Shown piece after piece: positions 2,037 to 57,135 of a DNA stretch of 57,135 nucleotides. Source of the DNA: a virus (taxonomy: Duplodnaviria; Caudoviricetes); the IMG/VR virus record IMGVR_UViG_3300001336_000023, positions 1-57,135 of that record; one strand, written 5' to 3'. The position numbers and the translations under genes were made by a program. The notes beneath the pieces are model-generated. The model was given only the letters and a program-made list of their open reading frames with translations. It was not told the origin of the DNA and did not search any database. Positions within the stretch are counted from its first letter, which is position 1, and the number at the start of each line of letters is the position of its first letter.

Positions 2037-5000
2037 TCACCTCGCTGAGTACTGTCTATAGACAATACCATAATGAGATACTTCAAATCTGTGTGTTGCA
2101 GGCAGATACACTTTGAACCCCGGTAATTTCCCTAAAGCATTCACTTTTGTTTCTAGGTGAATAAACTTATACGTTGTTAAGTACTCTCCGGTGATTGTGA
2201 ATCCGTCTAATTCTAATCCTGCAAACGTAATGAATTTGGTTACTGATGGAACAATGATTTTTACATTAGGATCAGCTTGTTCAACAATGTCACCATATTC
2301 ATCTAACACTGCTTGAATATTTGTCGCATTCTCTAACATGATGCCATCTGTATAAGGGATAATATTGAACGCCAGCTCGACCCCTTCAAAGTTGACAATT
2401 GTTAGAATATGACGACGTACACGTTTCTTATGCAGTGAGTTTAATCCTAATCCTCCTGTATCCATAAAGGATTGTACTTTGGTGATTGCTTCTGTCTCAT
2501 TGGTTTCGCGCCAACTTGAATCCTCATACACAATAGGACGAGCGTCACCTAGTTCATATCCTGTAATGTTTTCAGGAAGATAATACATAAACTCTGCCGC
2601 AGTTACGTGTGGGTCTATTAATGAGTTTTGTAATATGAGTCCAAATCCGTTTGGTCCTGATGAATGATAATCCATAATCGGAAATGCGCCAGCATAAGTA
2701 TCATACATTCTAAACCTTCTGTACTCTTTTTCATATATGTACATAACCATTAACGTATCTTTTACTGTTCCTAAATTATAAGATGCTATTAAGTAAACTG
2801 TGTCATTTTTTACAATACTTCTGTAGGTAACTGTAATGTTGGCCGTCGATTCAGCAATAATCCCGTAAGCGTCTTGCAAACGCTCTTTGATATACGCACT
2901 TGGTTTACGTAAGATATCATTTACAGGAGCTGTAATAGGCATTACATAAATATCACTGCTAGACTCAACTTGATAGTTTGATCTAATAACATACCCTTTA
3001 CTTTCGTGAACGAAGAATACTTCATTACCTAGACTGACAACAGTTGCTTTTTCACTAGGGTCTAACTGTACCCCCGAGTAAGCAAAGGTTTTTAACATGT
3101 TTGTATAATCCATTCCACTATGTAACATCCATATTCCATCTTCACAAAAGACATATAAATTACCTTGATGTGGGTGAACGTGAATAATTGGTGAGTCAAA
3201 AATAATTTGTCCATAAGGGAAAGGCATCGAATCTGTTGTTTCAAATTCTGTAAACTGTAAAGAATAATTCCCCATTGCTTCCCCGTAAAGGATTAAGAAA
3301 CGGTCGTACACTGTAAGATGCGTTGCGTCCCAAACATTATGGTCGTCTAACATATCTTTTGCGTCTAACGTTTTTTCTCCGTTATTAAAGATAGGATAAG
3401 TTGATCCTCGGGCAATCCATTCTTCGTAACGGGCATTCATTAGAACTTCATTACCTAATCGATAAATATTTAAAGGCATATTATCTTTTAAAAATTCAAC
3501 TTTTATTTTAAAGAAGTTAATTTCTAATGTAATCAAAGTATCCTGTACTACTGACTCAATTTCTTCTCTTACAGTTTCCACACTAATATGTTCTGCTCCA
3601 TTAATAATGACACGCACTTCGTAGCGAAAATCAGCGTACATTGTACTTAGTGTAGTAGCACCTAAAAATTTTACATCAGTCTGGACATCATAACTTTGCT
3701 TTGTTCCTACAGGCACCTCATCTTCTATAATTTCATAAGTTGTATCGTGATAGGCAGCATCGTCTGTAGTAGGGGAAGAATTACTTCGAAAAATATTACG
3801 TAACTCAAATTCCACAGGCTTACCACGGACATTAGCAAAATTCCAAACTTTATCTCCGGCACTTTTTATGGCATCAGTTAAAGCTCCACCGAATCCCGGA
3901 CTTGTACTATGGTCTGTTACATCAACCTCTGATTCATCAAAATCAACCCAATCCACTTTGTCACGCTCATCATTAGGTGTAATATATCGGAATGATGTTT
4001 TAACATACCCTGTATCTGAAATCTCAGGAAAAGCAATATAAGGGCGTATATAACAATCTTGTTTTGTTCCTACAGATTGGAGAACTTTATCACCTTTATA
4101 CAAGTATACCCCTAAGATAGAAGGACGGATATACGTCTCTGCATCTGCTCCAAAGTAATCTTCATAAACATATGGATCATCATCCAAAGCATTGAAAGAC
4201 ATACTGTAAGGGTCTTCAATATTGAGTGTCCCTAAATGCACTTCTTTAGGCTCTTGTATCAGAATGTAGTGTTGGTTACCATCATACTGTAAAGTGATTA
4301 AACCCTTGTATTTTACTTCATCTGCTGTACGAATACGTCCTAAGAAACTTACGGCATTTTGCCAAGACATATTCGCATAAGGGAATTCAGTATGCTTATT
4401 TCTTACATGATACTCGCTGTTGCTATAATTATGTTCCAAGATTTCAACAAAATGATCTATAGAAAGATCCCAATCCAATGCAGTTTTGTCTTCATTAAAA
4501 TAAGATTCAGAGCTGTAGATATAAGGATGGATTTCATTTAAAGTGTATATAGGTTTTTTAAAGTGTTTTGTATTTACATCAATACTATATTGAGGAATTG
4601 TACCACTGTAGGAATCATAACATCTGATGTCAAACTCTATGTTTGCCAATAACGTAGAGTCTGTATAGTATTCTGTAGGATATTCTGTACTATAAATACC
4701 TATTTTTTCAGTTTTAGCATATTCACTACAGATAACATAATTATCGTAAAACAAATAATTACTCTGTAAATATTTTATCTCTCCATACCCTCCTGCAAGC
4801 ATATAAGAAGTTATTGCATAAAAGAATCGTTCAGGGTGGTGGTTGCCTAGATTATACCCAAAAACATGAGCTACAACACGCTGATAAGCATCATATTGAG
4901 GGGAGTTTTTATCATAAATCAAAATGTATCCATCGAAAGCATTTAGATGGGTAGTCAATTTAGATTTAGCTGTAGTTGCTCCATTATCTTCATATTCAGG

Positions 5001-24713: not shown

Positions 24714-26075
24714 ATGAAAACAAAATTTATTATAACCGTACCAAATAATAGAAACAAACACACAGGAGTATCAGCAAAACTAACACGCCCAACTCTTGAA
24801 GAAATACTACTGTATAACGCAAAAGATTTTTGGAAAACATTAAACTATTTACCTGATTATATATCTTATCAAAGAGAAATAGATGAACACAGGTATATTA
24901 AACAATATTTTCCTAGCAAAACAGTATTAACTGATTTATTTTATGCAGCATTCACACACGATGACCAAAAAACATCTAACCGCTTAAACCGTAAGCACAG
25001 CCGTTACGTAGAGCGTTATAATAGTTATGTATATATTACAAACCAATTAAAACCTTTTATTGAAAAAATGGAAAAATTCATTACAACAGATTTTATAAAC
25101 AATAAAAAAGACTATTATGATTATTGGGAAAAGAAAGAATACAAAGGAAAAGATGATGCAGGTAATGATATTTGGAAATACCGTATAATTCAACCACCTA
25201 AAGACGAACTCATGGATTTACATAAAGAAGCTAATCTTCTTTTTCAAAACACATTACAGATACACCCTCACGAAGCAGTTCACTCTTTTCGTAAAGCGCG
25301 TTCCCCTTATACCAATGCAAAAAGACACCAACAAAGTAAACATATTGTCAAAACAGACATCAAAGATTTTTATCCTAATATAACAAAGAAGTTTTTAAGA
25401 AAACAGTTGTGTTCTCTTAAAGAGTTTGCTATAATAGACACAACAACAGATAAATTGGCACCTGAACAACAAGATTATAAAAATACAATCACAAGATTTC
25501 TAGAAGGAATCGTTGAACTTGCAACACTAAATAATGAACTTCCTCAAGGTGCACCGTTATCGCCTTTACTATCAAATTTAGTATTCACACCTTATGACTT
25601 AGCCATCTATGACTACTTAGCAAATAAACCAAAAGAAATAAGTTCAACTTACGTAATGTATACACGTTATGCTGATGACTTATTCTTCTCTAGTCTACAT
25701 AAAATTGACAAAGGTGCACTTATTTTAAAAGTAAATCAAACTATTGCAGATTCAAATTTTACACTACATGAACGAAAAACAAAATACTTTAAAACAAAAC
25801 AAAGAGTATTTATTACGGGTGTTAAAATTAATCAAGAAAACAATTTAACTTATGGATATGAAAAAAAAGAAGATTTAAAAAAACGCATTTTTCAAACTTT
25901 AATTATCATTAAAAACAAACAAAATATAGACGAACACGAAGTACAAATGTTGATAGGTGATATCAGTTTTGCTAAAAGTATTGAACCTCAATACATTAAT
26001 AATGTAATAGCAAAATACGCTAGAAAATTCAATATCCCTGTACATCGTTTCTATAAACATTTGCTTCAAAAATAA
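24714..26075 (+). CDS. Retron-type reverse transcriptase
   Basis: YRIIQPP, NAKRH (retron region X NAxxH), TDIKDFYPNI, LPQGAPLSPLLSN, YTRYADDLFFS, ITGV (region Y VTG-like); ~150-aa N-terminal extension. Confidence 0.92.
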   Translation: MKTKFIITVPNNRNKHTGVSAKLTRPTLEEILLYNAKDFWKTLNYLPDYISYQREIDEHRYIKQYFPSKTVLTDLFYAAFTHDDQKTSNRLNRKHSRYVERYNSYVYITNQLKPFIEKMEKFITTDFINNKKDYYDYWEKKEYKGKDDAGNDIWKYRIIQPPKDELMDLHKEANLLFQNTLQIHPHEAVHSFRKARSPYTNAKRHQQSKHIVKTDIKDFYPNITKKFLRKQLCSLKEFAIIDTTTDKLAPEQQDYKNTITRFLEGIVELATLNNELPQGAPLSPLLSNLVFTPYDLAIYDYLANKPKEISSTYVMYTRYADDLFFSSLHKIDKGALILKVNQTIADSNFTLHERKTKYFKTKQRVFITGVKINQENNLTYGYEKKEDLKKRIFQTLIIIKNKQNIDEHEVQMLIGDISFAKSIEPQYINNVIAKYARKFNIPVHRFYKHLLQK

Positions 26076-40119: not shown

Positions 40120-43100
40120 CTAGCGTCGATACGGATGCTGTGTTTCTGCCCAGCGATATCTCGTTTTGTCCATTGGGCTATATTGTAGGTGTCCATATGC
40201 ACGGAAGGATGTACGTTCTGAGTTCGTAGGTTTTGCAAAGTTTGCATTTCTTGAAAGAAAAGCTGTTCTAGGATAAGCACTACGTCCTCCGTAGTAAGGG
40301 TCCACCAGACTAGGGAATATGTTGTCTAGACTTTTTGCGTTCCCTGATGCTACGTTTGCTATGTTCTTTACTTGATTTAGCCCTGGACTTCTCATGATTC
40401 TGTCTTGTGTATCTAAGTCAGAGTCCGGTGTGATTCGTGTTGACATGTTTCTAATTAATGGGTTAATCTTTCTAACCAATTGATCAGGTATTCCTGTTTG
40501 TTTTTGCATACCTGTAAAGGTTAATGCGTCTGCAAATGTGAATCCTGTTTGTAAAGCATAATTACCAATAGGGATATTCCCTCGTGACATTTGATATTGT
40601 GCGTAATCATTGTCGTCTATTTCGTCTCCCCAAGCGAGAAGCATTGCTTTAGAAAGAGTTCTTGCAGTTACTGCATCTTGGTAAAACGCTTCGTTCCAAA
40701 ACTCAATACTTCGGATTGGATAAGATACGAATGGAATAACCATCTCAGCCCATACTTCTGCTTGTGTTTTGTTTGCGTAGTTGAAGTGGGTCTTGAGTAT
40801 TTTGTTCAACGATTCATTGACTGTGAGTCCTTTACGTATATCATTGATGTGTAATCCTAGACGTCCTACAGTTTCTGACCAACCATTGATTTGTAAATTT
40901 GCTCCCCATGGTGTGTATTTTCCATATAGACCTTTTGTGTAGGCTTTCATAATTAAAGAGTCTTGTCCTTGGCCAATAATCCCTTGACGCATGTGCATCA
41001 TCATTTGATGAGCCTCGCTTGCTGCTGCCGGTGTACTGACAAAGTCATCTACAAATTTTGTAATTTCTAAGTCTTCTAATTCTTTTGCACTGAATGTGTG
41101 CCCTTGTTTTGTTTTTGCTTCAATGAGTAAGTCTATCCAACTTATTGCATAGTCTTTTTTCCTTGCGGAATAACTTACTAATTCTGCTGCTTCATTATAA
41201 TATTTTGTATAAGTGTTGTGCCAACGCATAGCAACAAATGTATCATACCATACTGACACAGGAGCAAGTACTCCTCCTTCTGCCGCAACTACATTCTTTA
41301 AGTTAATATCAAAGAAGTTGTTTGTGAAGAAATTGACTGTTGTAAGTGAGAATACTTTTAATGGCATAATTAAGCCTTTATGTATTGCTTTTGCTAGAGG
41401 GTTACTCAGTTGATATTTTTGTTTTGTTACACGTTCTAATTCATGGATGCTGTGTTGGTCTAGTACACCCATAGGTAACATCTCTGTATGTGCGCCTATT
41501 CCCCAATCACTTACGTCTGCACGTTTTAGAGCAATGTCTAAAGCGTCTGTTTTTGAGTTTGCACGGAGTAGGTTGTCTAGTTCCATGATATGTTCTACTT
41601 TTGGGTTGTGTACTCTACGCACTGCGTACCCTGATTTTACTCCTTCGTCTTTCACAAGCATTACAACATCATGACCTGCTTTTCTTATATACTTTAAGAA
41701 TTCTTTTGCTCCTTCTCTTCCTTCGCCATACTGTGTACGTATGTGTCTGTAACTGTCACTGAAAGATTTTTGGATATTGTCAATTGTTTGTGCTTTAGTG
41801 TATTTGAATACTTCACTCTCTTTGATGACCCCTGTTTCATACCCTTTAGATAAGGCTTCATAATATTTTTGATCATAAGACCCTGTTAAGTAATCATAAT
41901 AAGTGGCATAGATTCTTTTTTCAAATTCTATATAAGCGTCTGGATCAACCATTTCGCCACCTTGTTTTGTTTTTAAGTATCCTTTATAAGGGTCTCCTCC
42001 CCATTCTCGAATTGGTGCAAACTTTTCATTTAGTTCTTTAAAGTAAGGGTCGTCTACGGCTAATAAGTTTCTCATAATGTCTGCTTTGATATTACGTCCT
42101 TTTGTATTAGCACGATTGCTATATGCAAAGCGCATGATGTCTTCAGGGTCTCCTAAGTTTTCTAATAAGCGATGCATGATTTTTAGTTCAGGACGATTGT
42201 CTTGGTAAGGTATCGCATCTTCGACTGTCTTTGTAATATCATCACTAAATAACATATTCATTAAACGTGTTATTGATCTTTGTGTTCGGCTGTAGTCTGT
42301 TAAGCGTAAAACACTTGCACTACCTTTACGTGCCAAGTCTCCAATATTCACTATGTCTGCGAAGTACTCCGGATTCTCTACACCAATTTCTTTTGGTAAG
42401 CTTCCTTTTTTCAATCCTTCTTGGATTCCTCGGATATAGGCTTTCCATTCTCCTACTTGTACAGGGTTGAGTTCTGATGCAGCATTTTTGTACTTGATAT
42501 CTCTTAATGGTTTACGGATATTTTCCATTGCGCCATGAATGATTTCTGACAACTCTTGGTAAATGATACTTGCTTTTTGTTGTGCAGCATAATCCATAGT
42601 ATTCGTTTCAAAGAATGCTGTAGGGTCTAAGATAGACTGTTTCATTACTTCGTATAACCTGTTCGTATACTTTGTTGTAGGGTTGAGCATTATTGCTTCT
42701 TCAGGGAATCCTCTATCCTTTAGACTACGTATTCTACGCTGTATGTAGGTGTAGAACTCTTGTAGGGCACTGTTCGATAAATGGTCTTCGTCAAACTTAC
42801 TGATCATTTTGTTCGCTTCAGTACCCTTCATGATTTTTATAAAGTCTGTAAATGATTCAAATTCTGAAAACTCAGATACATTTCCTTTTAATAATTGTTG
42901 TCTGTGGTTTCTTATTTTTTTGTTTAACACTTTATCAACGTTGTACATTAAATCGTACATATCGTGATAAATAATCCTTGATCCTAAAGGCCCTTTAAAA
43001 TAAGCTTTATTGCTATCCAAAGTTTCTTTAGTGCGCAAGATTTCGAATATTCTTTCTTGGGTTTTTGTGTAGTCATTTGTCGCCTCCATATTTTCTATTA

Positions 43101-46100
43101 ATTTTGTTAGTGGGTCTTCTTTGAAGTTTGCTTTAAATGAACGTACAAGACCTTTACCTTTTATCTTAGGGTCCACACTGTGTTTAATAATTCCATCGTG
43201 TTGCGCTTGGATTAATTTTTGGTACATATATTCCCTAAAGAAAGCAGACATACGTTGATCGGCTGAGCTGCCTTCTATTCCTTCTTGTAAGACCGCATTT
43301 TGTATACGGTGGTATTCTTCGTTTTTTGTAAATTCGTTGAGGATGCTTATGTGATTCTTCATAGCGGAGTCTTGTAACACTGCAACTTCATTACCATATT
43401 GATAAGATAATTGTTCTGCATAATGTTCTGATTGTTTCTTTGTCAATCCATTAGGCCCTAATATTTTTTCGTCGATAGTCGTACGTAAATCTTCTAATAA
43501 GCGTAATGAGTCTTCTTCTAAAGAATATGTATCATCTAATGCAGAAAGACCTAGACTGTCTAATTTTGCATGTACACGTCCTAGAAGTCCTTCTACTCTT
43601 GTAGCTTCTTGATGTAAAGACTGTAGGCTAAGTATTTGTCTTTCACGCATCGCAGTAATATCTCCTTCACGAACAATGCGAATTGTTTTGTTTAGTTGTT
43701 TACGTAAGTCTTCACGGAACTCTAATAATTCACTGATATCTTCTACTAGTATATCAATATCGGTTCGCGCGTTAATGATACCCTTTTCGAGAAGGTCGTT
43801 GTATACTTCATCAACACGGTAATAGTCTTCAACCTTTTGGCGTATAGTTTGACTTGTTCCATCTAAGTCAGGGATATCAATGTATTTTTCATAGGCTACA
43901 CTATCACCTAACTCATCTGCGATATCCTGCATCATATCAATAATATCTTCGCTATACCCTTCACGTCCTGCAATGTTAAGCTCTTCTAAATCTTTTGCAT
44001 TTAGGTAATTCTTAGCCATACTATACTGTCCTTCAGTGGCTGCCATTTCTGCTATGTCATCTACGCCTGAGTCTGCTCCATAGAGTAATCTGTAAGTTAT
44101 TTCTGCATCATATGCAGCATTGTGGAAGTAGGACTTGCCATCTGGACGTGCGTTTGTTTTTACACCTTGTGCTAATTTGTTTAGTATTGTATCATCATAA
44201 GCTCGTTGAGCAATATCTTTTAATCCGCTTTTACCACCTTTTGAATTGATGCGGAAAATTGGTAAAGTATCAAATATGTATTTATCTTTGATCCCTAATT
44301 TGAAAAGCATGTTCGCATCATGTTTTGCATTTTGTGCAATAACGACATCAATATCTTTTAAAAGTTCTTGCACTTTTCCGCTTACGATATCAAATTCTTC
44401 TGCAACATCTTCATAATGCATAGGGTCAATCCCTGTAAATTCAAAGAAGTAATCTCCGTGATTGTATTTCTTTTTTACTTTAGCAAAAAATTCATGACGT
44501 TCTACCTTAATTGTTCCGTCAGGTAATTTACGTCTTACGACTAAAGCTATTTGTGTAGGGTGTTTAACATTAGGATCGGGGTCCGGCATATCTTCCATGT
44601 CTAGTGTTGCAGTATTGTAATCATAAAGATCGCCCTCTAAAGTTTTGTTTGAGTATTTCCCATCACTATCTAAGTAAGTCATAATAGATGGCGGTTCTTC
44701 TACTTTGTGTCTATAGAACCCTCCTACGTATGTGTTTGTTGTGTATTCATCAATGTTGTTGTGCATCGTGTTAAATATTCCTTCTTTAGAGAAAGGGCCA
44801 CGTTGTCCTTCTAGTTGACTGCTGACCTCGTGAATCTTTTTCCCATCTACCATTTCTGTAGTAATGTTTAGGCTTAATGCGTTTTGGTCTTTTTTAAGAA
44901 GCGTAAATACTTCTTCAAATTGTTCTGTAACATACAGGTCTCTAAAAGTTTCGATTTCACGCATCATGTCTTCTGTACCTTTATATTTGTTCAAGATAAT
45001 TTCACGTGCTTTAGCTTCTCTTGGTGTTGTCATATCTTCTATAGTTTTTAAACGTTCAGCGAGTTCGTCTAAACTTTTGTTGTATTTTTGTACTCGTTTA
45101 AAACGACGCAATAATTCAGGACTGAACTCTGCGATAATATCTTCAGGGATATGTTTATGTAAATCTAAAGTGTAAAAGTCTTCTTGAAAGATTGGGCGTA
45201 AAATACGTCTAGCAAAAGCTTCGATTGCTTCAGCAGTATGCATTCCTCCGAGGCTTGCTTGTTTTTTCATATTGTCAATAACGTTAAACATTTGCCTTAT
45301 TTCAAACTTGTATAATATACCTTTAGTTAAAGGGACATCATCATTAATGAAGATCGATGCATTGATAAAGTCTTCAGGGCTACTGTCCTTACTCATAAGA
45401 ATACGTTCGATTTCTTTTTTTGGGTCATCTTGCATACTGTATAGTTTTACTTTACGGAAAAGTTCTCTTGTTTCTTTTGTATGCAATCTCTTATATAGTA
45501 ATTCTTGGTCTTGTATTTGACGATATAGTTGCGTGTGTTCATTTGCAATTTTGTAAAATGTCGTATGTACTTGTTCGTTTACTTTTTCTAAGAAACGGTA
45601 CAAAGTTAAATCAGTGATTTCTACATCGATATCTTTTGCTCCAGCATATTCTTCAAATGAACGGCGTAACTTATTAATAATGTCTTCCATTTTCCCAAAG
45701 TCTTGACGTTCTGTTTGAATTGCTTTGATGATATCATCTATTGCTAATCGATGCTGTATGTAGTTTTGTCCTTCTAACTGATCAAGGTGTTTTGTAATTT
45801 TAGTATTTTTTATACGACGTTTAACTTTTGTAAAACTTTGCCCAAGTCCTACTGTACGTAATTCTGTGATCAAATTATTGACAGTATTGTGTACACTAAT
45901 AATGAGTTGTTCGATTTCAGAAGGAGTTCCAGCATTTTTATAAGCAACGTTTCCTAAAGAATCTATAGGTCTTATGTGGTGCTTGTAACCTAAGTTTCTT
46001 AATACGTTTTTCCCTACACGTAAATTGGCTATAACTTGAGCAAACATGTTTCCGTTGTGTAAATCTTTTACATAGTACAACATATCTTGTGTAGACATAC

Positions 46101-49100
46101 TTGCAACAAGTTCCGTGTTTAATCCTTCAAATAGTTTCCCCCATATACCTTTATCTGTTTTATTATAAGTTTCTTTTGCTTCTGCAATAGCAGCTTTCCC
46201 AACATCTGTCATGTCATCTGCGTAACGTACTTCGCGTTCTAGTATAGTTTTATACGCTGTGAATGCATCTTCAAAAACTTTGTACTCTTCCATTTGACTA
46301 GCGTTTAAACCATCAGGTCCTTTATTCAGTAATGTCATAAGGAATTGTCCTGCTGCTTTCTTATCTCCCATAATTCCTTCAGTATAGTCTAAGTACAGTC
46401 TGCTTGCACTCTTGTAGTTCATGTATATAATATCTTCTGCTTGATTACGTCCTGCTATATATTTCCCTGTGCGAATTTTTTCAAAGAAATTAATATTTTG
46501 TTGTAAAGTTTTAAATATTTTTGCACTAGGAGCACTTTCAGTAAACTTTTTACTCATAAAGTCTTTCATAAAATTGGCCAATGCATTTTTTGCGTTTTCT
46601 TCTTTTTTGATTTCTTCTGTAAGTTCTTTAATTACCTTTTCATTTTTTGTGTATTCTTTCCCCTTGTTTATCTTTTGTGCTTCAAAACTTTCTTTAAGTT
46701 TCTTTGCATCATTCAAACGAGACTCCAATCCTTCTATCGTTAAGTCCCCTTGTTTAGTGTAAAATATCTCGATATCTTTTGCCGCTTGGAGGATGATATC
46801 TTCTGTGTACATATTCCCCTTCAATGCTTCTTTTAAAATTTTTGTATGTAGATCATCATACAGTTTTCTTTGCATTGTAATATCGTAGTCTAGTCCTTCA
46901 AAACGGTTATTGAGATTGTCTATTAAGCGAATAGCGTCTTTGTATTCTTCTATCATTTCTTTACGCCCATCAGCAGCAATGAAACGTTTAAGGTCTTCTA
47001 TTCTTTTGAAACGTTTGTGGATTTCTTTTAAACGTGCTTCATTGTTTTTGATGAATTTATAATAGTCTTCGATGTATGTATCTGCAAGCGCACGAAAAGC
47101 ACGGTAAGTATTTTCATTACCGGGGCGTTTTAAAAAGGCAATAAGAAAGTCCGCTTGTTGAGTATTCGTTGTAAGGACTTCCAAAACATCTAGAATTTGT
47201 TTAGCGAAATTGTATTCGCGTTCTAAATTCTTTTTTAAAGACATTGCTTTACTTAAAACTTCAGAACCTTTTTTCTCTGTTTCGTCTAAACGTTTTAGAT
47301 GTTCTCCTGCTTCACGTATTTCAGTAGTATATTTTTTCAACCCCTCTTCGTTTGCACGAGATAAGAGACGTTTTGTTGCAGCAGTATCTCCATACTTTTT
47401 AATGTGTGCGTTGATACCTGCAATAGTTTGTTGTACTTGTTTCTCAAGACCTTCAGTCTGGTTACTCTTTAAAAGAGCATCTTCGTATGCACGTTGTTCT
47501 TGTAACAGCTTAACATACTCTTCGGTTTCTTTGTTGAAGTCTTCTCCTGCATCCATACGTCGATTGAAGTTATCTAATAAATTTGTACGTTCTGCTTCCA
47601 TTTGACTAAGGGATTTTTCAAAACTATAAATTTCTTGATTTGCTGTTTGTACTTGTTTAGAATTTTGTACGTTAAGTTCACGTGTACGGTATTCTCTTAA
47701 TAAAGATTCGCGTTCTTGTACTTTACCAAATCGATAATTTCTAAGGCTTTGTCCTTCTTCAATCTTTAAATCTTTACGCATTTGTGCTATACGTTTTGTG
47801 TGTCTATCGATTTCTTTTGCACGAGCGTTAGGGATATTGATATAATCCTCATATATTTTTAACTGTTCTTGTAGTCGCTCTCTACGTTTGAGGATGTCAT
47901 AAATAAGCTCATTATGTTTAAAGGCTTCGTATCTATCTTTAAGAAAAGCAAGATCTTTCTTTGGCTCTTTAAGAGCTTTTTCTATAAGTTCTTTTTTCTT
48001 TTCCATACTCTTAGGCACTTTACGTTTTTTCCATTTTTTCATTTGTTCATGATGTTCTTTTAGTGCTCTTTCATACTCATCGACAGTTTCTTGTGTTTGG
48101 TCTATTGCGTTGCGATAATATTTTGCCGTAACCGCATCATCAGGATTATACTCTGCACCATTATAGTATTCTAGCTCATCATTTGCTTCAGCTAATTGTT
48201 GTTTTATTTTATCTATATTATGCTTAGGGTTTGTGTTTTCTAAACGTAATTTATCTATACTTAGCTCGTACTCTAATGTGTGTATTCGTTCTGACGCTAA
48301 AAGGTCCGCCGCATAAGAACGATCAAAAACTTCTAAACCAGTTGTATAATTTCCTCGTTGTGCTCCAATGTCTTGGATTCTAATATCATACAATTCTTCT
48401 AACTCTGCGATCGTACGTTTATTTTTTTCTATCTCACGAGCCTTTTGGATTTGTAGGTCTTCAATTCTCTTCAATTCTGATTCACTAGGTGCTTCTGCTT
48501 TTTTTAAAGCGTCTTGTAAGTTAATTATCTCTTTCTCTTTAGCAGCGATACTTTCTCTTTGATGCCCAATACGGCTGTACGTTTGTCTTATTTCAAGACG
48601 GACTTCAGGATCATATTTGTTTATATCAAAATTGACTAGACGACTTTTTAAATTCGCTAATCGTTTTTCTTTTTCAGCAATAGCAACTTCCATACCTTTA
48701 CGGTAACTTGCGTGTTTTACACTCTCTAAACTTGCTTTTGTTTTTTCTAACTCTTCAAGTTCGTCTAAACGTTCAATAAGGTTTTCCATTTTTGTAACAC
48801 GTAAATCGAGACTTTCTTTTTCCAACTCATGATGGTCTTTTAAAACACGGATGATGTCGTCTCTTGCAACGATGCTTCTTTCTAAAGCGTCTTTTGTTTC
48901 AGATATACGTGCTTCTATTTCGATTTCTTCTTGTACTAAATCTAGATTAGAATGTTCTTTTGTCATTTTTGCTTTTTTATCTGCAATACGTTTTAATTCT
49001 TTTTCATACGTTTTGATATCTTTCTTTGCTTTTGTAACACGTGCAACACTTTCTTTTTGTTTAATAAGAACTTCTACTTCACGGTACGATATAAACGCTT

Positions 49101-50349
49101 CATCAAACTCTTCTCCTGTCATAACTCCTGAGTTTTTATAAGCGTCTAAGTTTCTTCCTAAATTCTTTTGAATCTTTTCGAGTTCATCTAAAGTGTACTC
49201 TTCAAAGCGTCTGTCTGATTGCCCTCTATAAGCTTGCATTGCTTTTTCAGATTCATTAAGAGTATTACGAAAATTGTTCCTAGAGACTCCTCGTGAGTAA
49301 CGTATTACTTTACGTCCTACAACGAAAGGTACTCCTACAGGGCTGACTTTTAACATGCTTCTTATAAACTTATCTTCAGCGCGATCAAATCCCCACGCTA
49401 AACGATAACCTAAATTACCTTTGTGTGTAGTGTATACTCGTTGCCACATGTTATCTATTTGACTGGTTCTCATATGTGTTACACTTTTGTTTCGGATAAG
49501 TTCTGTCATTGAATCACGAAACGCTTTTTCGTCTCCTCGTTTGGCATATCGTGTTAAACGATCTAACCTTTTGCGAATACCTGTTAAACGTAAGGCGTCA
49601 ATTTTAGTACTCTTTGTAGCAGACTCTCTTGCAAGTAAACCAAGACCAATATCAACAATCTCATCGTTTTGATAAAGTTCTTTTAAGATTGCTTTATTGT
49701 CTACTACAGCTTCTTTACCTAATTTAATACTCTGTTTAAATGCTGTTTTTGTAGCGCTACTTGCTGCTCCTTCAATAAGTCCTGCGATATTAATAAGGGC
49801 ACCTGGGTCAGTAAGAATTTCTATTGCAAAATTGTTTATGAAGTTATCTTTTATACCCCCACTTGTATTGGCAATGATGCGCTCAGAGTCTACACTGAAA
49901 CGTCCATAATCTCCTGTACCAAAAGCGTCTCCTAAAACTTCAAAATAATTTGTTCCTTCTTGTGCTGAAATAATCCCACTTTTTAGAAAGTAAGAAGGTA
50001 TATCAAAAGTACCTGCAACAAATTCAAGCCACGTCTTAAACATATTCCCTGGATCGGTAACATTATAAGCTCTTTTACCTAAGTCCATAGCCGCAGCAAA
50101 AGTGGTGGAGATTGGATCATCTACACCGTATTCACGTTTGATTTTATCTCGTGCTGCTTTGTTTAAAAATATGTCAGTTAAACTACGTATCTTTTTACGG
50201 TCCTCTAACTCTTGTTGCGCATTTTGTCTGTTCTCATTAATCTTGCGTTGTAAGTTATATCCTCCAGCAGTAGGGGGAGCCATACTAGGTACTCCCGGTC
50301 TACTTCTAAAGTTTACATCTGAAGGTCTAATGATAGGTGCTTTGAGCAT
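40120..50349 (-). CDS. Giant (3409 aa) probable internal virion/ejected protein with embedded DEDDh exonuclease domain
   Basis: AGGAGG RBS; long coiled coils; exonuclease motifs LDMED, AQNAKHD, FDTL, HNAAYD; last gene of the late operon. Confidence 0.75.
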   Translation of the reverse strand: MLKAPIIRPSDVNFRSRPGVPSMAPPTAGGYNLQRKINENRQNAQQELEDRKKIRSLTDIFLNKAARDKIKREYGVDDPISTTFAAAMDLGKRAYNVTDPGNMFKTWLEFVAGTFDIPSYFLKSGIISAQEGTNYFEVLGDAFGTGDYGRFSVDSERIIANTSGGIKDNFINNFAIEILTDPGALINIAGLIEGAASSATKTAFKQSIKLGKEAVVDNKAILKELYQNDEIVDIGLGLLARESATKSTKIDALRLTGIRKRLDRLTRYAKRGDEKAFRDSMTELIRNKSVTHMRTSQIDNMWQRVYTTHKGNLGYRLAWGFDRAEDKFIRSMLKVSPVGVPFVVGRKVIRYSRGVSRNNFRNTLNESEKAMQAYRGQSDRRFEEYTLDELEKIQKNLGRNLDAYKNSGVMTGEEFDEAFISYREVEVLIKQKESVARVTKAKKDIKTYEKELKRIADKKAKMTKEHSNLDLVQEEIEIEARISETKDALERSIVARDDIIRVLKDHHELEKESLDLRVTKMENLIERLDELEELEKTKASLESVKHASYRKGMEVAIAEKEKRLANLKSRLVNFDINKYDPEVRLEIRQTYSRIGHQRESIAAKEKEIINLQDALKKAEAPSESELKRIEDLQIQKAREIEKNKRTIAELEELYDIRIQDIGAQRGNYTTGLEVFDRSYAADLLASERIHTLEYELSIDKLRLENTNPKHNIDKIKQQLAEANDELEYYNGAEYNPDDAVTAKYYRNAIDQTQETVDEYERALKEHHEQMKKWKKRKVPKSMEKKKELIEKALKEPKKDLAFLKDRYEAFKHNELIYDILKRRERLQEQLKIYEDYINIPNARAKEIDRHTKRIAQMRKDLKIEEGQSLRNYRFGKVQERESLLREYRTRELNVQNSKQVQTANQEIYSFEKSLSQMEAERTNLLDNFNRRMDAGEDFNKETEEYVKLLQEQRAYEDALLKSNQTEGLEKQVQQTIAGINAHIKKYGDTAATKRLLSRANEEGLKKYTTEIREAGEHLKRLDETEKKGSEVLSKAMSLKKNLEREYNFAKQILDVLEVLTTNTQQADFLIAFLKRPGNENTYRAFRALADTYIEDYYKFIKNNEARLKEIHKRFKRIEDLKRFIAADGRKEMIEEYKDAIRLIDNLNNRFEGLDYDITMQRKLYDDLHTKILKEALKGNMYTEDIILQAAKDIEIFYTKQGDLTIEGLESRLNDAKKLKESFEAQKINKGKEYTKNEKVIKELTEEIKKEENAKNALANFMKDFMSKKFTESAPSAKIFKTLQQNINFFEKIRTGKYIAGRNQAEDIIYMNYKSASRLYLDYTEGIMGDKKAAGQFLMTLLNKGPDGLNASQMEEYKVFEDAFTAYKTILEREVRYADDMTDVGKAAIAEAKETYNKTDKGIWGKLFEGLNTELVASMSTQDMLYYVKDLHNGNMFAQVIANLRVGKNVLRNLGYKHHIRPIDSLGNVAYKNAGTPSEIEQLIISVHNTVNNLITELRTVGLGQSFTKVKRRIKNTKITKHLDQLEGQNYIQHRLAIDDIIKAIQTERQDFGKMEDIINKLRRSFEEYAGAKDIDVEITDLTLYRFLEKVNEQVHTTFYKIANEHTQLYRQIQDQELLYKRLHTKETRELFRKVKLYSMQDDPKKEIERILMSKDSSPEDFINASIFINDDVPLTKGILYKFEIRQMFNVIDNMKKQASLGGMHTAEAIEAFARRILRPIFQEDFYTLDLHKHIPEDIIAEFSPELLRRFKRVQKYNKSLDELAERLKTIEDMTTPREAKAREIILNKYKGTEDMMREIETFRDLYVTEQFEEVFTLLKKDQNALSLNITTEMVDGKKIHEVSSQLEGQRGPFSKEGIFNTMHNNIDEYTTNTYVGGFYRHKVEEPPSIMTYLDSDGKYSNKTLEGDLYDYNTATLDMEDMPDPDPNVKHPTQIALVVRRKLPDGTIKVERHEFFAKVKKKYNHGDYFFEFTGIDPMHYEDVAEEFDIVSGKVQELLKDIDVVIAQNAKHDANMLFKLGIKDKYIFDTLPIFRINSKGGKSGLKDIAQRAYDDTILNKLAQGVKTNARPDGKSYFHNAAYDAEITYRLLYGADSGVDDIAEMAATEGQYSMAKNYLNAKDLEELNIAGREGYSEDIIDMMQDIADELGDSVAYEKYIDIPDLDGTSQTIRQKVEDYYRVDEVYNDLLEKGIINARTDIDILVEDISELLEFREDLRKQLNKTIRIVREGDITAMRERQILSLQSLHQEATRVEGLLGRVHAKLDSLGLSALDDTYSLEEDSLRLLEDLRTTIDEKILGPNGLTKKQSEHYAEQLSYQYGNEVAVLQDSAMKNHISILNEFTKNEEYHRIQNAVLQEGIEGSSADQRMSAFFREYMYQKLIQAQHDGIIKHSVDPKIKGKGLVRSFKANFKEDPLTKLIENMEATNDYTKTQERIFEILRTKETLDSNKAYFKGPLGSRIIYHDMYDLMYNVDKVLNKKIRNHRQQLLKGNVSEFSEFESFTDFIKIMKGTEANKMISKFDEDHLSNSALQEFYTYIQRRIRSLKDRGFPEEAIMLNPTTKYTNRLYEVMKQSILDPTAFFETNTMDYAAQQKASIIYQELSEIIHGAMENIRKPLRDIKYKNAASELNPVQVGEWKAYIRGIQEGLKKGSLPKEIGVENPEYFADIVNIGDLARKGSASVLRLTDYSRTQRSITRLMNMLFSDDITKTVEDAIPYQDNRPELKIMHRLLENLGDPEDIMRFAYSNRANTKGRNIKADIMRNLLAVDDPYFKELNEKFAPIREWGGDPYKGYLKTKQGGEMVDPDAYIEFEKRIYATYYDYLTGSYDQKYYEALSKGYETGVIKESEVFKYTKAQTIDNIQKSFSDSYRHIRTQYGEGREGAKEFLKYIRKAGHDVVMLVKDEGVKSGYAVRRVHNPKVEHIMELDNLLRANSKTDALDIALKRADVSDWGIGAHTEMLPMGVLDQHSIHELERVTKQKYQLSNPLAKAIHKGLIMPLKVFSLTTVNFFTNNFFDINLKNVVAAEGGVLAPVSVWYDTFVAMRWHNTYTKYYNEAAELVSYSARKKDYAISWIDLLIEAKTKQGHTFSAKELEDLEITKFVDDFVSTPAAASEAHQMMMHMRQGIIGQGQDSLIMKAYTKGLYGKYTPWGANLQINGWSETVGRLGLHINDIRKGLTVNESLNKILKTHFNYANKTQAEVWAEMVIPFVSYPIRSIEFWNEAFYQDAVTARTLSKAMLLAWGDEIDDNDYAQYQMSRGNIPIGNYALQTGFTFADALTFTGMQKQTGIPDQLVRKINPLIRNMSTRITPDSDLDTQDRIMRSPGLNQVKNIANVASGNAKSLDNIFPSLVDPYYGGRSAYPRTAFLSRNANFAKPTNSERTSFRAYGHLQYSPMDKTRYRWAETQHPYRR

Positions 50350-53384: not shown

Positions 53385-53948
53385 CTAACTTAAGTATTTA
53401 AGCATTTGATCTTTGATCTCTTTACGATCTTTCTTTTTGTCTCCTGATGACAAACGAATATCTATGTGAACAATTTTTTGATTCTTAACAATGATGATTG
53501 CAGGATAATGCTTAATTTTTAATTCAAGAGCATAATCAATATTTTCTTTTACAGACATATCGATGTGCTCTACTTGAATCTCTAATTCATTAAATACTTG
53601 TTCGTAAATAGGACTTATTTCTTTACAAGCAGGACAAAGCTCTGTACTAAAGAAAACTACAAAATCACTGCTTTCAATTCCTGACCCTTCGCGAGGATCG
53701 TAGGTTTTTCCAATTAAATATTCACGTGCTTCTTTTAATGTCTTTTCCTGTGGATTATTTTGTGGTGCTTGTTCACCACTTCCAAATTCGTCCAATCCTT
53801 TTAACAAGTTTAAAGACTTTTCAATATTATCCACTAAAACACCATATTCTTTTTTCGTCATTAAAGTTCGTCCCAATGTTGTGGTTGTTGCTTTATTAAT
53901 GTTTGAAACCAATTGATCTGCTAATTTACCTAATTCTAATTTCATCAT
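53385..53948 (-). CDS. Thioredoxin-domain protein
   Basis: VVFFSTELCPACKEISP (CxxC) and IKHYPAIII cis-Pro loop; ~85-aa N-terminal extension. Confidence 0.88.
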   Translation of the reverse strand: MMKLELGKLADQLVSNINKATTTTLGRTLMTKKEYGVLVDNIEKSLNLLKGLDEFGSGEQAPQNNPQEKTLKEAREYLIGKTYDPREGSGIESSDFVVFFSTELCPACKEISPIYEQVFNELEIQVEHIDMSVKENIDYALELKIKHYPAIIIVKNQKIVHIDIRLSSGDKKKDRKEIKDQMLKYLS

Positions 53949-53965: not shown

Positions 53966-55915
53966 TTAATATATTTCTGTTGCTTCACAAACTTTTGTTC
54001 TTTGTTCTACGATATAAGTACACTCTGATGTTTCAACTTCCCATTGAGGGACTGCTTCACTTTCAGTCTGTACACAATCGTAATACTTGCGCTGATATCT
54101 TATTTCGTCTGATAATTCTTGACATTCGTAATTGTTTTTCTGCCATTGTGTCTTATCTTTTTCTACACAATCATAATACTTGCGACGATATTCCGTTCCG
54201 TATGATCCGTCACAAAGATAATTTACTTGACGGTATTCTGTAGAATAAGAACCTACGCAATCATAATATTTTCTTCTGTATTCCGTATCATAGCTTTTTA
54301 CGCAATCATAATAATTTTTCTTGTATTGAGTTGAATAGGATCCTACACAATCATAATATTTTTTACGATACTGTGTTTGTGAACTCGCTTGTACACAACT
54401 GTAGGTACGCTTAGTGTAACGCGTCTCACTAACCCAAGTATACCCATTTACCATACAGTCAAACTCATTGTTGTATTTTGAACTTGTACAATACTCGTCG
54501 GTGTATGGCGAACAAGTAATAACTGTGTTTCCAATATCAGTACAATTAATACAATGACCGCTCGAACTACACGAACTAACATCGGTTGTACTTTGTAAAG
54601 AAGTATTTACTGTAGCACAAACTGATCGTGTTTCTACTGAATAATCTGAACTGTTTAAATTAGTATTACATGAGCACGTTCCTAATGATCCTGAAGTATA
54701 AGACGTTGTCCATGAAGTTGTGTGGCTGTACTGCCAAGATGCACTCGAACATACGGATCGTGTTGAGACGCTATAATCTCTACTTCCCGTTGTACACGAA
54801 CAGGTTCCTAATGACCCTGAATAAGTTGTACTACTCCATGAAGTTGAATAATCAAATACCCAAGAAGCACTATCACATACCGATTGAGTCTGTCTAATAT
54901 AATCCGTTTCGTTTAAATTTGAAGTACAAGAACAGGTTCCTAATGAATGAGCCGCAATATAAGATGTAGTCCACGAACTTACATGGCTATAATCCCACGA
55001 CGCACTATCGCATACTTGTTGTGTTTCAACATCATAATTACTTTGTTCTAACTGAGATGTACAAGAACAAGTACCTTTGCTATTTGACATCGCTGACGAT
55101 TGCCAAGTTCCATAACTCGAGAATACCCACGATGCTGAAGTACATACTTGTTGTGTTTCAATATCATAAACGTCAGTAACGTTTGTATTCTCCGTACAAG
55201 AACATTCCATTGTATCGTTCCAAGTAGGGGATTCTGCATTGGTTGACCATGTACCATAATTTGTAAACTCCCAAGCCATTTGCGTACTATCGCACACTTC
55301 TCTAGTGGATACTTCATATTCTATCAAATCAAAATTCTCGGGATGACTACAATCACAAGTCGAAGTTTTATTTGCTGTATACTGACTGTCGCTCCAAGCA
55401 CTGTCTGAAATGTGTACCCAATCTGCACTTGTACAAAATACGTCACTTACAACATCATAATTCTCTTGTCCTAACTGTGAAGTACAAGAACAAGTTCCTT
55501 TCGAATGAGGTCCATCAGGCGTTGCCGACCATACTGTATCTCGATCGTGTTGCCATTCAGCACTAACACAATCAATTCGGTCTGCTAATTGAGTACAGTC
55601 TGACACCCATGTCGTACCGTGATCTGAAGTACTAGAGCAAGCACCGGATGTTGTGTTACAACTCTCTTCAACAGCAGTACTGACCGAAACATTTTGTGTC
55701 GTTTGACATTCAATATATTCATTCCCAACATCTGCTTCTTGTGCACAGGGTGGAGTTGCTACAGAACAAGCACTGACAGAAGCCCAACTATTGAAACTTC
55801 CATAGGCATATTCAAATGTAGGATAAATTTGATTGTCACCTTCGTGAATATACGCTATCTCAACATCGCCTATAGCAACGTGGATAAACGGTTCATCGCC
55901 TTGTCGAATAGGCAT
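53966..55915 (-). CDS. Cys/Trp/Ser/Thr-rich nested-repeat protein (probable virion appendage)
   Basis: Seven ~44-aa repeats (CxSAxW...W...CSC...Y) followed by seven ~15-aa repeats (TxYRxKYYDCV); AGGAGG RBS; in fibre gene cluster. Confidence 0.8.
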   Translation of the reverse strand: MPIRQGDEPFIHVAIGDVEIAYIHEGDNQIYPTFEYAYGSFNSWASVSACSVATPPCAQEADVGNEYIECQTTQNVSVSTAVEESCNTTSGACSSTSDHGTTWVSDCTQLADRIDCVSAEWQHDRDTVWSATPDGPHSKGTCSCTSQLGQENYDVVSDVFCTSADWVHISDSAWSDSQYTANKTSTCDCSHPENFDLIEYEVSTREVCDSTQMAWEFTNYGTWSTNAESPTWNDTMECSCTENTNVTDVYDIETQQVCTSASWVFSSYGTWQSSAMSNSKGTCSCTSQLEQSNYDVETQQVCDSASWDYSHVSSWTTSYIAAHSLGTCSCTSNLNETDYIRQTQSVCDSASWVFDYSTSWSSTTYSGSLGTCSCTTGSRDYSVSTRSVCSSASWQYSHTTSWTTSYTSGSLGTCSCNTNLNSSDYSVETRSVCATVNTSLQSTTDVSSCSSSGHCINCTDIGNTVITCSPYTDEYCTSSKYNNEFDCMVNGYTWVSETRYTKRTYSCVQASSQTQYRKKYYDCVGSYSTQYKKNYYDCVKSYDTEYRRKYYDCVGSYSTEYRQVNYLCDGSYGTEYRRKYYDCVEKDKTQWQKNNYECQELSDEIRYQRKYYDCVQTESEAVPQWEVETSECTYIVEQRTKVCEATEIY

Positions 55916-56125: not shown

Positions 56126-57135
56126 CTATCCCACCCAACTAAAGTATATTGTGTCGGTTGGTCGTCCGGTACCCATTGCATCGTAATCGGATTTTGCACC
56201 AACCCATATTTTCTTGTTACCTGAAGTTCTTTGATCGATTAGACCTTTGACATATTTATCTGAATCCGCTATGTTGTCAACGTTGCCGAGACCAACATCA
56301 GCCTTAATATGAGTATGAGCTAAGTTAACTGTTAAGTCACTAAGACCTTGTCTTGTAACTGTTAAAGTTCCGTCTCCGTCACCGCTTAGTCCAGTTACGT
56401 AGTTGTTGGTAAAACTTGTTATGTAGCCTGCATCATTCGTAAAGTGACTTACATTTGTTGGTTTATCTGTTACTTCATTATATTTAGGCAGATGCCCTTC
56501 TGAAAATACTCTGTTAGAACCTTCATATAATGTCTTTGCGTAAACTTTGTTTTTAAATACTTTAACCCCATTATCATAATTCATTGTAGTTACATTAGTT
56601 GCATCAGATGTGTCTATTCTTAATAATGTATAACTTTTTTCTGTTGGTCTAATATAACCACTAAAATAAGTTTGAGTATTTGAATAAGTTGACCCAGTGT
56701 ATCTAAGCGCAACATAGTCGGAACCGTTATAAGTACAACTAACAACTTCCCAATTTTCACTACCATAAGTCCCTACCGCTTCTTCTAATGTTAGGCTATA
56801 AGCGCTTGAACTTGCAGCACTTGAATATCCTACCTCGACGATTCTTAAACCATAAGCACCAGAGCTTCTTTGACCATATAGCGTTCCTATTACTTCATTA
56901 TTACCCTGTCCCAAAGGACAAAGAAGTAATAACATATCTGAACCACCCAGGCTTACTGTTTTTTGTATTAAGTGATAGTTTCCTACTTTCTCTACTAGGT
57001 TACTAATATCTTGATGGTCTGTTAAATACTCACTATGAGTATGTGAGGCCGGTGTGAACGTTGCAGGGATACCATCAAGATGATCCCAATGAGCCCTGAC
57101 ATATACCAGGGCATCATCGAAATCTCCTAAATCTG
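56126..57135 (-). CDS. Tail fibre/receptor-binding protein, variant B (5' end beyond window edge)
   Basis: Frame open from window end (DLGDFDDALVYVRAHWDH...PASHTH...) through the tracked ORF; KPTNVSHFTNDAGYIT, HTHIKADVGLGNVDN and IWVGAKSDYDA...TIYF fibre motifs. Confidence 0.85.
   Translation of the reverse strand, partial: DLGDFDDALVYVRAHWDHLDGIPATFTPASHTHSEYLTDHQDISNLVEKVGNYHLIQKTVSLGGSDMLLLLCPLGQGNNEVIGTLYGQRSSGAYGLRIVEVGYSSAASSSAYSLTLEEAVGTYGSENWEVVSCTYNGSDYVALRYTGSTYSNTQTYFSGYIRPTEKSYTLLRIDTSDATNVTTMNYDNGVKVFKNKVYAKTLYEGSNRVFSEGHLPKYNEVTDKPTNVSHFTNDAGYITSFTNNYVTGLSGDGDGTLTVTRQGLSDLTVNLAHTHIKADVGLGNVDNIADSDKYVKGLIDQRTSGNKKIWVGAKSDYDAMGTGRPTDTIYFSWVG
57039..57135. repeat. 97-nt exact direct repeat, copy 2 (matches 281-377)
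   Basis: Direct sequence comparison of contig ends. Confidence 0.95.

Follow-up and report, generated by a model that had tools for sequence, protein, structure and literature searches.

Two described systems come closest to the protein presented here. In the needle of phage T4 gp37, the chain runs out to a receptor-binding tip in the middle of the sequence and returns along a shaft with regular cross-links; its base domain D10 is assembled from residues 811–881 and 1010–1026 and encloses domain D11 (residues 882–1009) (excerpts of PMC6957217). In streptococcal antigen I/II (AgI/II), the A repeats and the shorter P repeats flank the V region and pair into a stalk, the outbound and return repeats thereby projecting a tip domain (excerpts of PMC3178794). 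Here we describe a gene of an uncultured marine phage (Duplodnaviria; Caudoviricetes) located at 53966..55915 on the minus strand of a DNA stretch of 57,135 nucleotides (nt; IMG/VR record IMGVR_UViG_3300001336_000023, positions 1 to 57,135), which is the entire record and is termed the window. Its product, P0001, probably follows a comparable fold-back course, with two repeat arrays of equal number flanking a Cys-rich tip. The T4 gp37 needle differs as an intertwined trimer with His-Fe sites, whereas P0001 is built of CxC and single-Cys units with a length ratio of 3:1 and shows no sequence similarity to it. AgI/II, which is not homologous either, is a wall-anchored bacterial adhesin with an α-helix/polyproline pair, whereas P0001 is rich in Cys, Ser and Thr, has predicted strands and is encoded in a phage tail gene cluster.

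The TSP1 unit, to which the original prediction had likened the Trp and Arg ladders of the presumed stalk, is defined by a WxxWxxW strand and by six Cys that lie together in an uninterrupted stretch of about 60 amino acids (aa). The likeness comprises an elongated Cys-rich unit with a Trp-bearing and a basic strand and, in the relative described below, a sum of 5 + 1 = six Cys. In contrast to TSP1, the modules of P0001 carry three Cys, the fourth lies 100–500 residues away and the unit is split along the chain. The comparison was not borne out, as no match to Pfam TSP_1 (PF00090) was obtained at E ≤ 1 and the spacing is W-x7-W instead of WxxW; of the proposed Trp–Arg ladder the composition alone fits, Trp residing in the long and Lys/Arg in the short array. 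Structural disulfides in phage tails are known from the fibres of cyanophage Pam3 (PMC9942802) and from Agrobacterium phage Milano (PMC10811340); there, a small number of bonds connect subunits whose folds are known, in contrast to a repeat-by-repeat staple in an orphan protein. A literature search for a Cys-rich two-array fibre or a nested-domain phage stalk, with supplements outside its scope, yielded no description, and the data presented below point to a fold-back stalk of a kind undescribed for phages.

Architecture of the Cys-rich protein

The open reading frame (ORF) extends from an ATG start to a TAA stop, coincides exactly with the interval originally assigned to it and encodes 649 residues, 44 of which are Cys. 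Its composition is dominated by Ser (15.6%), Thr (12.3%), Tyr (7.9%) and Cys (6.8%), compared with 4.5% Ala and 1.7% Pro. All features listed in the following lie on the minus strand. Residues 1–48 (55772..55915) are devoid of Cys, show the strongest conservation with the relative (identity at 23 of 47 aligned residues) and presumably dock the stalk at its base. They are followed by two outer 3-Cys modules (residues 49–108; 55592..55771) of the pattern C-x6-C-x12/13-C, whose Cys 50/57/70 and 86/93/107 are all kept in the relative (6/6). The subsequent seven long modules M1–M7 (residues 109–425; 54641..55591) share the signature C-x4-W-x7-W ... CxC and measure 45, 47, 50, 44, 45, 42 and 44 aa (mean 45.3 aa) with three Cys each, in agreement with the seven 3-Cys repeats of about 44 aa that had been noted originally. 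Their early Cys are residues 116, 161, 208, 258, 302, 347 and 389, the W-x7-W motif comes next, and the CxC motifs start at residues 142, 187, 238, 283, 328, 372 and 414. The CSC form of this motif noted originally is found in six of the seven modules and is replaced by CDC in M2.

A cut-down eighth module and the tip (residues 426–491; 54443..54640) together contain seven Cys, namely Cys433 in the eighth unit and then Cys449, 455, 458, 468, 476 and 487; this 7-Cys pattern also occurs in the relative, with inter-Cys loops of variable length. The chain continues with eight short strands s1–s8 (residues 492–615; 54071..54442) of 15–17 aa and one Cys each (residues 507, 523, 538, 553, 568, 583, 598 and 614). 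Cys closes each unit and is preceded by Tyr two residues earlier; s1 is a variant, and s2–s8 have a mean length of 15.3 aa, so that the originally noted order of one eighth-type strand and seven 1-Cys repeats of about 15 aa was found as such. Two terminal 1-Cys strands (Cys632 and Cys643) and a C-terminal tail complete the protein (residues 616–649; 53969..54070) and represent, together with the N-terminal 3-Cys pair, the two outer modules noted at each terminus. In total, P0001 comprises 2 + 7 + 1 modules with an odd number of Cys and 1 + 7 + 2 strands with a single Cys, i.e. 10:10 units.

The repeats were evaluated by comparing the observed alignment scores with those of 500 shuffles. For 19 of the 21 pairs of long modules no shuffle reached the observed score, the exceptions being M1–M3 (1/500) and M2–M3 (8/500), and the same result (0/500) was obtained for the two halves of the long array and for those of the short array; in the control, long versus short array, 55 of 500 shuffles reached the score. 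The long array is also detectable at the DNA level as six copies, 61–86% alike, with a spacing of 126–150 nt, and the short strands as a 45-nt tandem array at 54233–54364. Within the gene, exact words of 21 or 31 nt never occur twice, which makes an assembly collapse of the window repeats unlikely.

A single relative containing in-frame TGA codons

P0001 gave no match to Pfam (E ≤ 1), PHROG or NCBIfam, nothing below E = 0.5 among the PDB sequences and no hit when 50,697 phage records were searched by tblastn; these searches thus detected no homologue among the fibre families described so far. A profile-free search of 1.84 billion representatives returned two proteins, P0002 and P0003. P0002, a protein of 278 aa, aligns to residues 1–268 of P0001 with all six N-terminal Cys kept, and a contig scan with the P0001/P0002 alignment led to two contigs, L001 and L002, that share 1408 nt without a difference. 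L001, a marine metagenome contig, carries the only relative found. P0003 (236 aa) consists of eight near-identical 15-aa repeats with an R..YY.CV motif as in the short strands; this period is the only common feature, and P0003 is not counted as a family member.

The relative's gene is a single frame of 1122 codons at 650..4015 of L001, and the stored ORF of 278 aa corresponds to its head. Within this frame, stops occur at four codons (279, 475, 552 and 1098), and each of them is TGA, whereas five other ORFs of L001 are free of TGA and terminate in TAA. Three of the four TGA align exactly to Trp of sister repeats or to Trp625 of P0001, and readthrough of the fourth restores a P0001-like C-terminus, residues 616–649 of P0001 being conserved in the relative only under this condition. 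Two public runs, X1 and X2, which belong to different studies, have contigs with the same letters. Based on the Trp alignment, the restored C-terminus and the identical letters across runs, it seems that TGA is translated as Trp in this late gene alone. Recoding of stop codons has been described for phage late genes (bioRxiv 10.1101/2021.08.26.457843). Insertion of selenocysteine or Gly at these codons was rejected on account of the exact alignment of three of the four TGA with Trp. Likewise rejected was a pseudogene, because of the one open frame of 1122 codons with only TGA stops and a C-terminus conserved past the last of them; the letter-for-letter agreement of L001, L002 and both runs also opposes it.

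The full product, P0004, shows the same plan as P0001, consisting of two outer 3-Cys modules, long modules, a 7-Cys tip, 15-aa strands and two terminal strands, and P0001 and P0004 constitute a new protein family. In both proteins the Cys number of every long module is odd, and each strand carries a single Cys. The long modules of P0004 mostly contain five Cys, the two additional ones aligning with Tyr and Val/Ser of P0001; M8 contains a further Cys. These extra Cys are either both present (12 modules) or both absent (9 modules, 7 of P0001 and 2 of P0004), and in no module is one of them found alone. P0004 matched no Pfam family at E ≤ 0.01. Homologue searches with P0001, the alignment and residues 760–1122 of P0004 found nothing beyond the query or P0001; no further relatives emerged from scans of viral contigs with the protein, the alignment, two DNA patterns, the thioredoxin-like alignment (see below) and P0003, or from scans of genome contigs. 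The relative had been invisible to protein searches because of the in-frame TGA codons that are read through.

Numbers of long modules and short strands

The deposited P0004 sequence contains 14 long modules and 16 strands, or 2 + 14 + 1 modules versus 1 + 16 + 2 strands including the outer and tip units, and thus taken as assembled argues against equal numbers. The contig pieces of run X1 provide an explanation. A piece covering positions 2534–2799 of L001 has a depth of 20.6, compared to 9.95 and 9.73 for its flanks; of the flanking pieces one ends at 2563 and the other begins at 2770, and a 49-nt piece matches 2770–2815 except for two differing and three unaligned letters. According to a script applied to L001, and provided that the contigs are built from 31-letter words, one extra unit of 255 nt (85 codons, two modules) would produce piece ends at 2563, 2534, 2799 and 2770, on the basis of the 11 nt at 2534–2544 that are identical to those at 2789–2799, and would also produce the 49-nt junction piece and 2 + 2 mismatches. 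In run X2, which stems from the other study, a 285-nt piece on 2516–2799 has a depth of 10 between flanks of 6.3 and 5.93, and its differing letters, four, are as many as expected if the repeat was entered through the loop (19 + 266 = 285). As a control, the exact repeat 3250–3354 (shift 90), which is present in L001, also appears as a double-depth piece (21.4). Runs X3 and X4 provided one short piece each, near-identical to L001, from which nothing was deduced.

The deposited L001 and L002 probably lack one 255-nt unit that was collapsed in assembly. As this unit adds two modules, the relative's gene most likely encodes 16 long modules and 16 strands, corresponding to 19:19 with the tip and outer units. 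The expectation that homologues keep equal numbers of long and short repeats therefore holds with 7:7 in the window and, the collapsed unit counted, 16:16 in the relative (n = 2). The periods are 45.3 versus 15.3 aa in P0001 and 46.5 versus 15.2 aa in P0004, which amounts to a ratio of about 3:1.

Mirror symmetry around the tip

Superrepeats are evident in L001, where a 90-nt two-strand unit occurs four times and a two-module unit of 255–273 nt just as often. For a comparison of the arrays, modules were classified as CxC or non-CxC, and strands as carrying an aromatic residue before Cys or Arg/Glu at position −2. P0001 possesses only CxC modules (7/7) and only strands of the aromatic type; in P0004 the latter have Tyr at −2 in five of six cases and Trp at −3 in s10. 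When read outward from the tip at the deposited numbers of 14:16, the types of modules and strands agree in 14 of 14 pairs with two strands skipped, the best parallel reading of P0004 reaching 11 of 14, and 14 agreements were attained by 15 of 20000 and 15 of 5000 shuffles. At 16:16 the types match in 15 of 16 pairs without any skip, and 7 of 8008 arrangements are as good.

The identity patterns among the modules of P0004 also correlate with those among its strands in the antiparallel order (r = 0.50–0.62) but not in the parallel order (r = −0.03 to −0.12); 7 of 20000 random assignments reach an r of 0.521. At 16:16 the antiparallel correlation rises to r = 0.734, a value reached by none of 50000 random assignments. 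The youngest duplications follow the same symmetry. In the short array, the exact repeat 3250–3354 recurs at a shift of 90, so that s4 equals s6, and in the long array the collapsed unit places M12 into the sequence twice. Both letter-identical pairs occupy positions 3 and 5 counted from the tip. The paired duplications at two distant sites, by which the stalk was originally supposed to change its length, are thus seen in the sequence, the newest pairs being mirrored around the tip.

Proposed structure and mechanism

The most likely reading of P0001 is a stalk belonging to the phage tail, probably serving as a distal fibre or for receptor binding. The chain would leave the base via the row of about 45-aa, acidic and Trp-bearing modules, form a 7-Cys knot at the tip and return as basic, Tyr-rich strands of about 15 aa, such that one return strand completes one outbound module. 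The Cys of the strand would satisfy the unpaired Cys of the module, by 3 + 1 Cys in P0001 and by 5 + 1 in the relative, and the 3:1 length ratio might reflect three strands running out and one running back over the same axial rise. Since the two halves must keep their register, the length of the stalk would change only by matched duplications in both arrays. The numerous disulfides may be managed by the thioredoxin-fold protein encoded in the neighbourhood. As a rough estimate for fully extended strands, the stalk would measure about 50 nm with 10 units and about 95 nm with 19.

The charge distribution fits a face-to-face packing of the two arrays and would allow cation-π contacts. In P0001 the long array has a net charge of −29 and 15 of the 20 Trp, and the short array a net charge of +5 with 22 Lys and Arg in 124 aa and a high content of Tyr; in P0004 the respective charges are −65 and +15. 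Of the original idea of modules nested inside each other, the counts, the types and the mirrored duplications stand as observations. We infer that the two arrays physically pair in a nested fold, that disulfides rather than metals hold them together, that the protein is part of the virion and that its tip binds a receptor. For the fold-back stalk as a whole, in which the repeat numbers, types and duplications are observed and the pairing is deduced from them, we estimate a probability of about 0.6. More tentatively, and with somewhat less than even odds, the protein might represent a new structural class among the fibres by which phages recognise their hosts, i.e. a length-tunable stalk of nested domains with closure by a strand from the far end, disulfide staples, mirror-image duplications and a dedicated thioredoxin-like enzyme, which would have no counterpart among the solved folds.

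If the pairing is true, the family provides a natural case of two arrays evolving in step within one protein, and the relative appears to be caught just after matched duplications whose copies have not yet diverged by a single letter in either array. The family would then add a disulfide-based, β-type member to the fold-back stalks represented by the T4 gp37 needle and AgI/II and a fibre design outside the usual trimeric β-helix and coiled-coil types, and would be useful for annotating the large share of marine phage tail genes that lacks an annotation. The proposal also raises the question of how about 22 disulfides, or about 50 in the relative, are made in or after the reducing cytoplasm. 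As a practical lesson, the relative was hidden by TGA readthrough and its repeat number was under-assembled.

Alternative explanations

The same fold-back pairing might serve to build a Cys4 site for Zn or Fe from each module and its strand. The sum of 3 + 1 = 4 Cys per unit of P0001 would suit such a site, and the cytoplasm in which phage proteins are synthesised is reducing; moreover, the T4 gp37 needle contains seven iron sites along its fold-back fibre (PMC6957217, in part). The relative, however, has 5 + 1 Cys per unit with the extra Cys strictly paired (both in 12 modules, neither in 9, one in 0), which is a disulfide signature, the spacings between neighbouring Cys of 1, 2, 5, 6 and 10 residues are unlike a chelating knuckle, and each of the two loci has a linked gene for a thioredoxin-fold protein. 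For these reasons disulfides are favoured, and metal sites appear distinctly unlikely. Most phage fibres are trimers, so that the pairing may also take place between the chains of a trimeric or dimeric fibre, and equal counts, mirrored types and charge complementarity suit inter-chain as well as intra-chain contacts; the monomeric state originally proposed is not supported by them. Intertwining of this sort is realized in the trimeric T4 gp37 needle (PMC6957217, in part). In P0001 and P0004, on the other hand, the tip is inserted between the arrays without a linker and the strand adjacent to it is a special variant, and therefore a turn within one chain is the simplest reading; the inter-chain arrangement is considered rather unlikely.

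The most improbable of the alternatives, in our judgement, assumes that the arrays are independent domains and that their equal numbers arose by coincidence or by similar expansion near the tip. Several points weigh against the fold-back stalk, and four of them also speak for this independence, namely the models, the deposited 14:16, P0003 and the weak mirror test of P0001. The predicted models, too low in confidence to be usable, display no contact between the arrays: AlphaFold2 applied to the whole of P0001 without an alignment gave a mean predicted local distance difference test score (pLDDT) of 40.6 and a predicted template modelling score (pTM) of 0.39, and residues 340–539 with a two-row alignment including the relative gave a pLDDT of 28.0. 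The relative has 14:16 units as deposited, one of the two count points needs a correction deduced from contig pieces, and the collapse prediction assumes contigs made from 31-letter words. With a family of n = 2, the co-variation of the counts rests on two points. P0003, whose ORF includes no long module, may be a strand-like array on its own. The mirror test is weak for P0001 alone, where r is 0.48 and 516 of 5040 permutations are at least as high; in addition, the correlation is blind to register, as shifts of 1 or 2 give r = 0.49–0.61, and the type rule was set after the data had been seen, with the pair M6–s12 failing at 16:16. Mirrored similarity could also result from both arrays growing beside the tip. 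Finally, the Cys total of P0004 is odd (99 as assembled), Cys465 being an extra residue. Independent domains are disfavoured by the odd number of Cys in each long module and the single Cys in each strand, by the counts of 7:7 and, with the collapsed unit, 16:16, by the types (15/16; 7 of 8008 arrangements) and the mirror correlation (0 of 50000) and by the newest duplications, which lie at the same positions from the tip. The low-confidence AlphaFold2 model contains three strands per long module, which is not taken as evidence, and in the ESM Atlas all structure rows had a template modelling score ≤ 0.25 with a poor query model and offered no usable feature match.

Genomic context

Rated 100% complete, the viral record carries genes for a portal, a major head protein, a DNA polymerase, a helicase and a primase. 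The gene of P0001 belongs to the minus-strand late block, which also includes the portal, the major head protein and a Phage_fiber_2 gene. Upstream of it lie an ORF of 64 aa and a tail-fibre-like gene (56126..57133, minus strand; phrog_35419, tail fiber protein), the 5′ end of which is beyond the window. P0001 is accordingly encoded in a phage tail-fibre gene cluster, and the order is the same in L001, where a fibre-like gene, then the Cys-rich gene and then a thioredoxin-fold gene on the opposite strand follow each other. The fibre-like gene of L001, a homologue of that in the window, directly precedes the Cys-rich gene, and both have a weak Phage_tail_C end.

The thioredoxin-fold neighbour in the window (187 aa; 53385..53948, minus strand), located downstream of P0001, contains a CPAC motif and scores 44.8 bits with PF00085 (cut-off 23.5). 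Its counterpart in L001 scores 29.9 bits, carries CPYC and is 32% identical; the first approximately 90 residues of both proteins, outside the thioredoxin fold, are also conserved. Against the NCBIfam equivalogs the scores of the neighbour stay under the cut-offs, and it is therefore no canonical TrxA. The L001 gene (4056–4607, minus strand) is inverted relative to that in the window, convergent with the Cys-rich gene and near exonuclease-type genes.

Further downstream in the window, the thioredoxin-fold gene is followed by several orphan ORFs and then by an orphan of 3409 aa (40120–50349, minus strand), which lies directly downstream of the tail block, has no Pfam or PHROG match and may be a virion or ejection protein of giant size. 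A 139-nt direct repeat is present close to either end of the record (239–377 and 56997–57135; 131 of 139 letters identical), both copies of which encode the same segment of about 46 aa on the minus strand. The right copy is part of the fibre-like gene, and the left one belongs to an unlisted open frame that leaves the left end and diverges afterwards, which suggests two fibre genes with a common segment near the N-terminus. The ends of the record are not joinable in frame as a simple circle. A reverse transcriptase gene (24714..26075, plus strand; RVT_1, phrog_2825) is located among the replication genes; a diversity-generating retroelement directed at the P0001 gene was considered and rejected, as the window contains no template/variable repeat pair of at least 50 nt. 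No transfer RNA gene, and hence no suppressor transfer RNA, was found in the window (1–57135). TGA terminates 5 of the 27 ORFs checked, and in two of these cases it overlaps the following start codon as ATGA; the standard code therefore appears to apply to the window phage.

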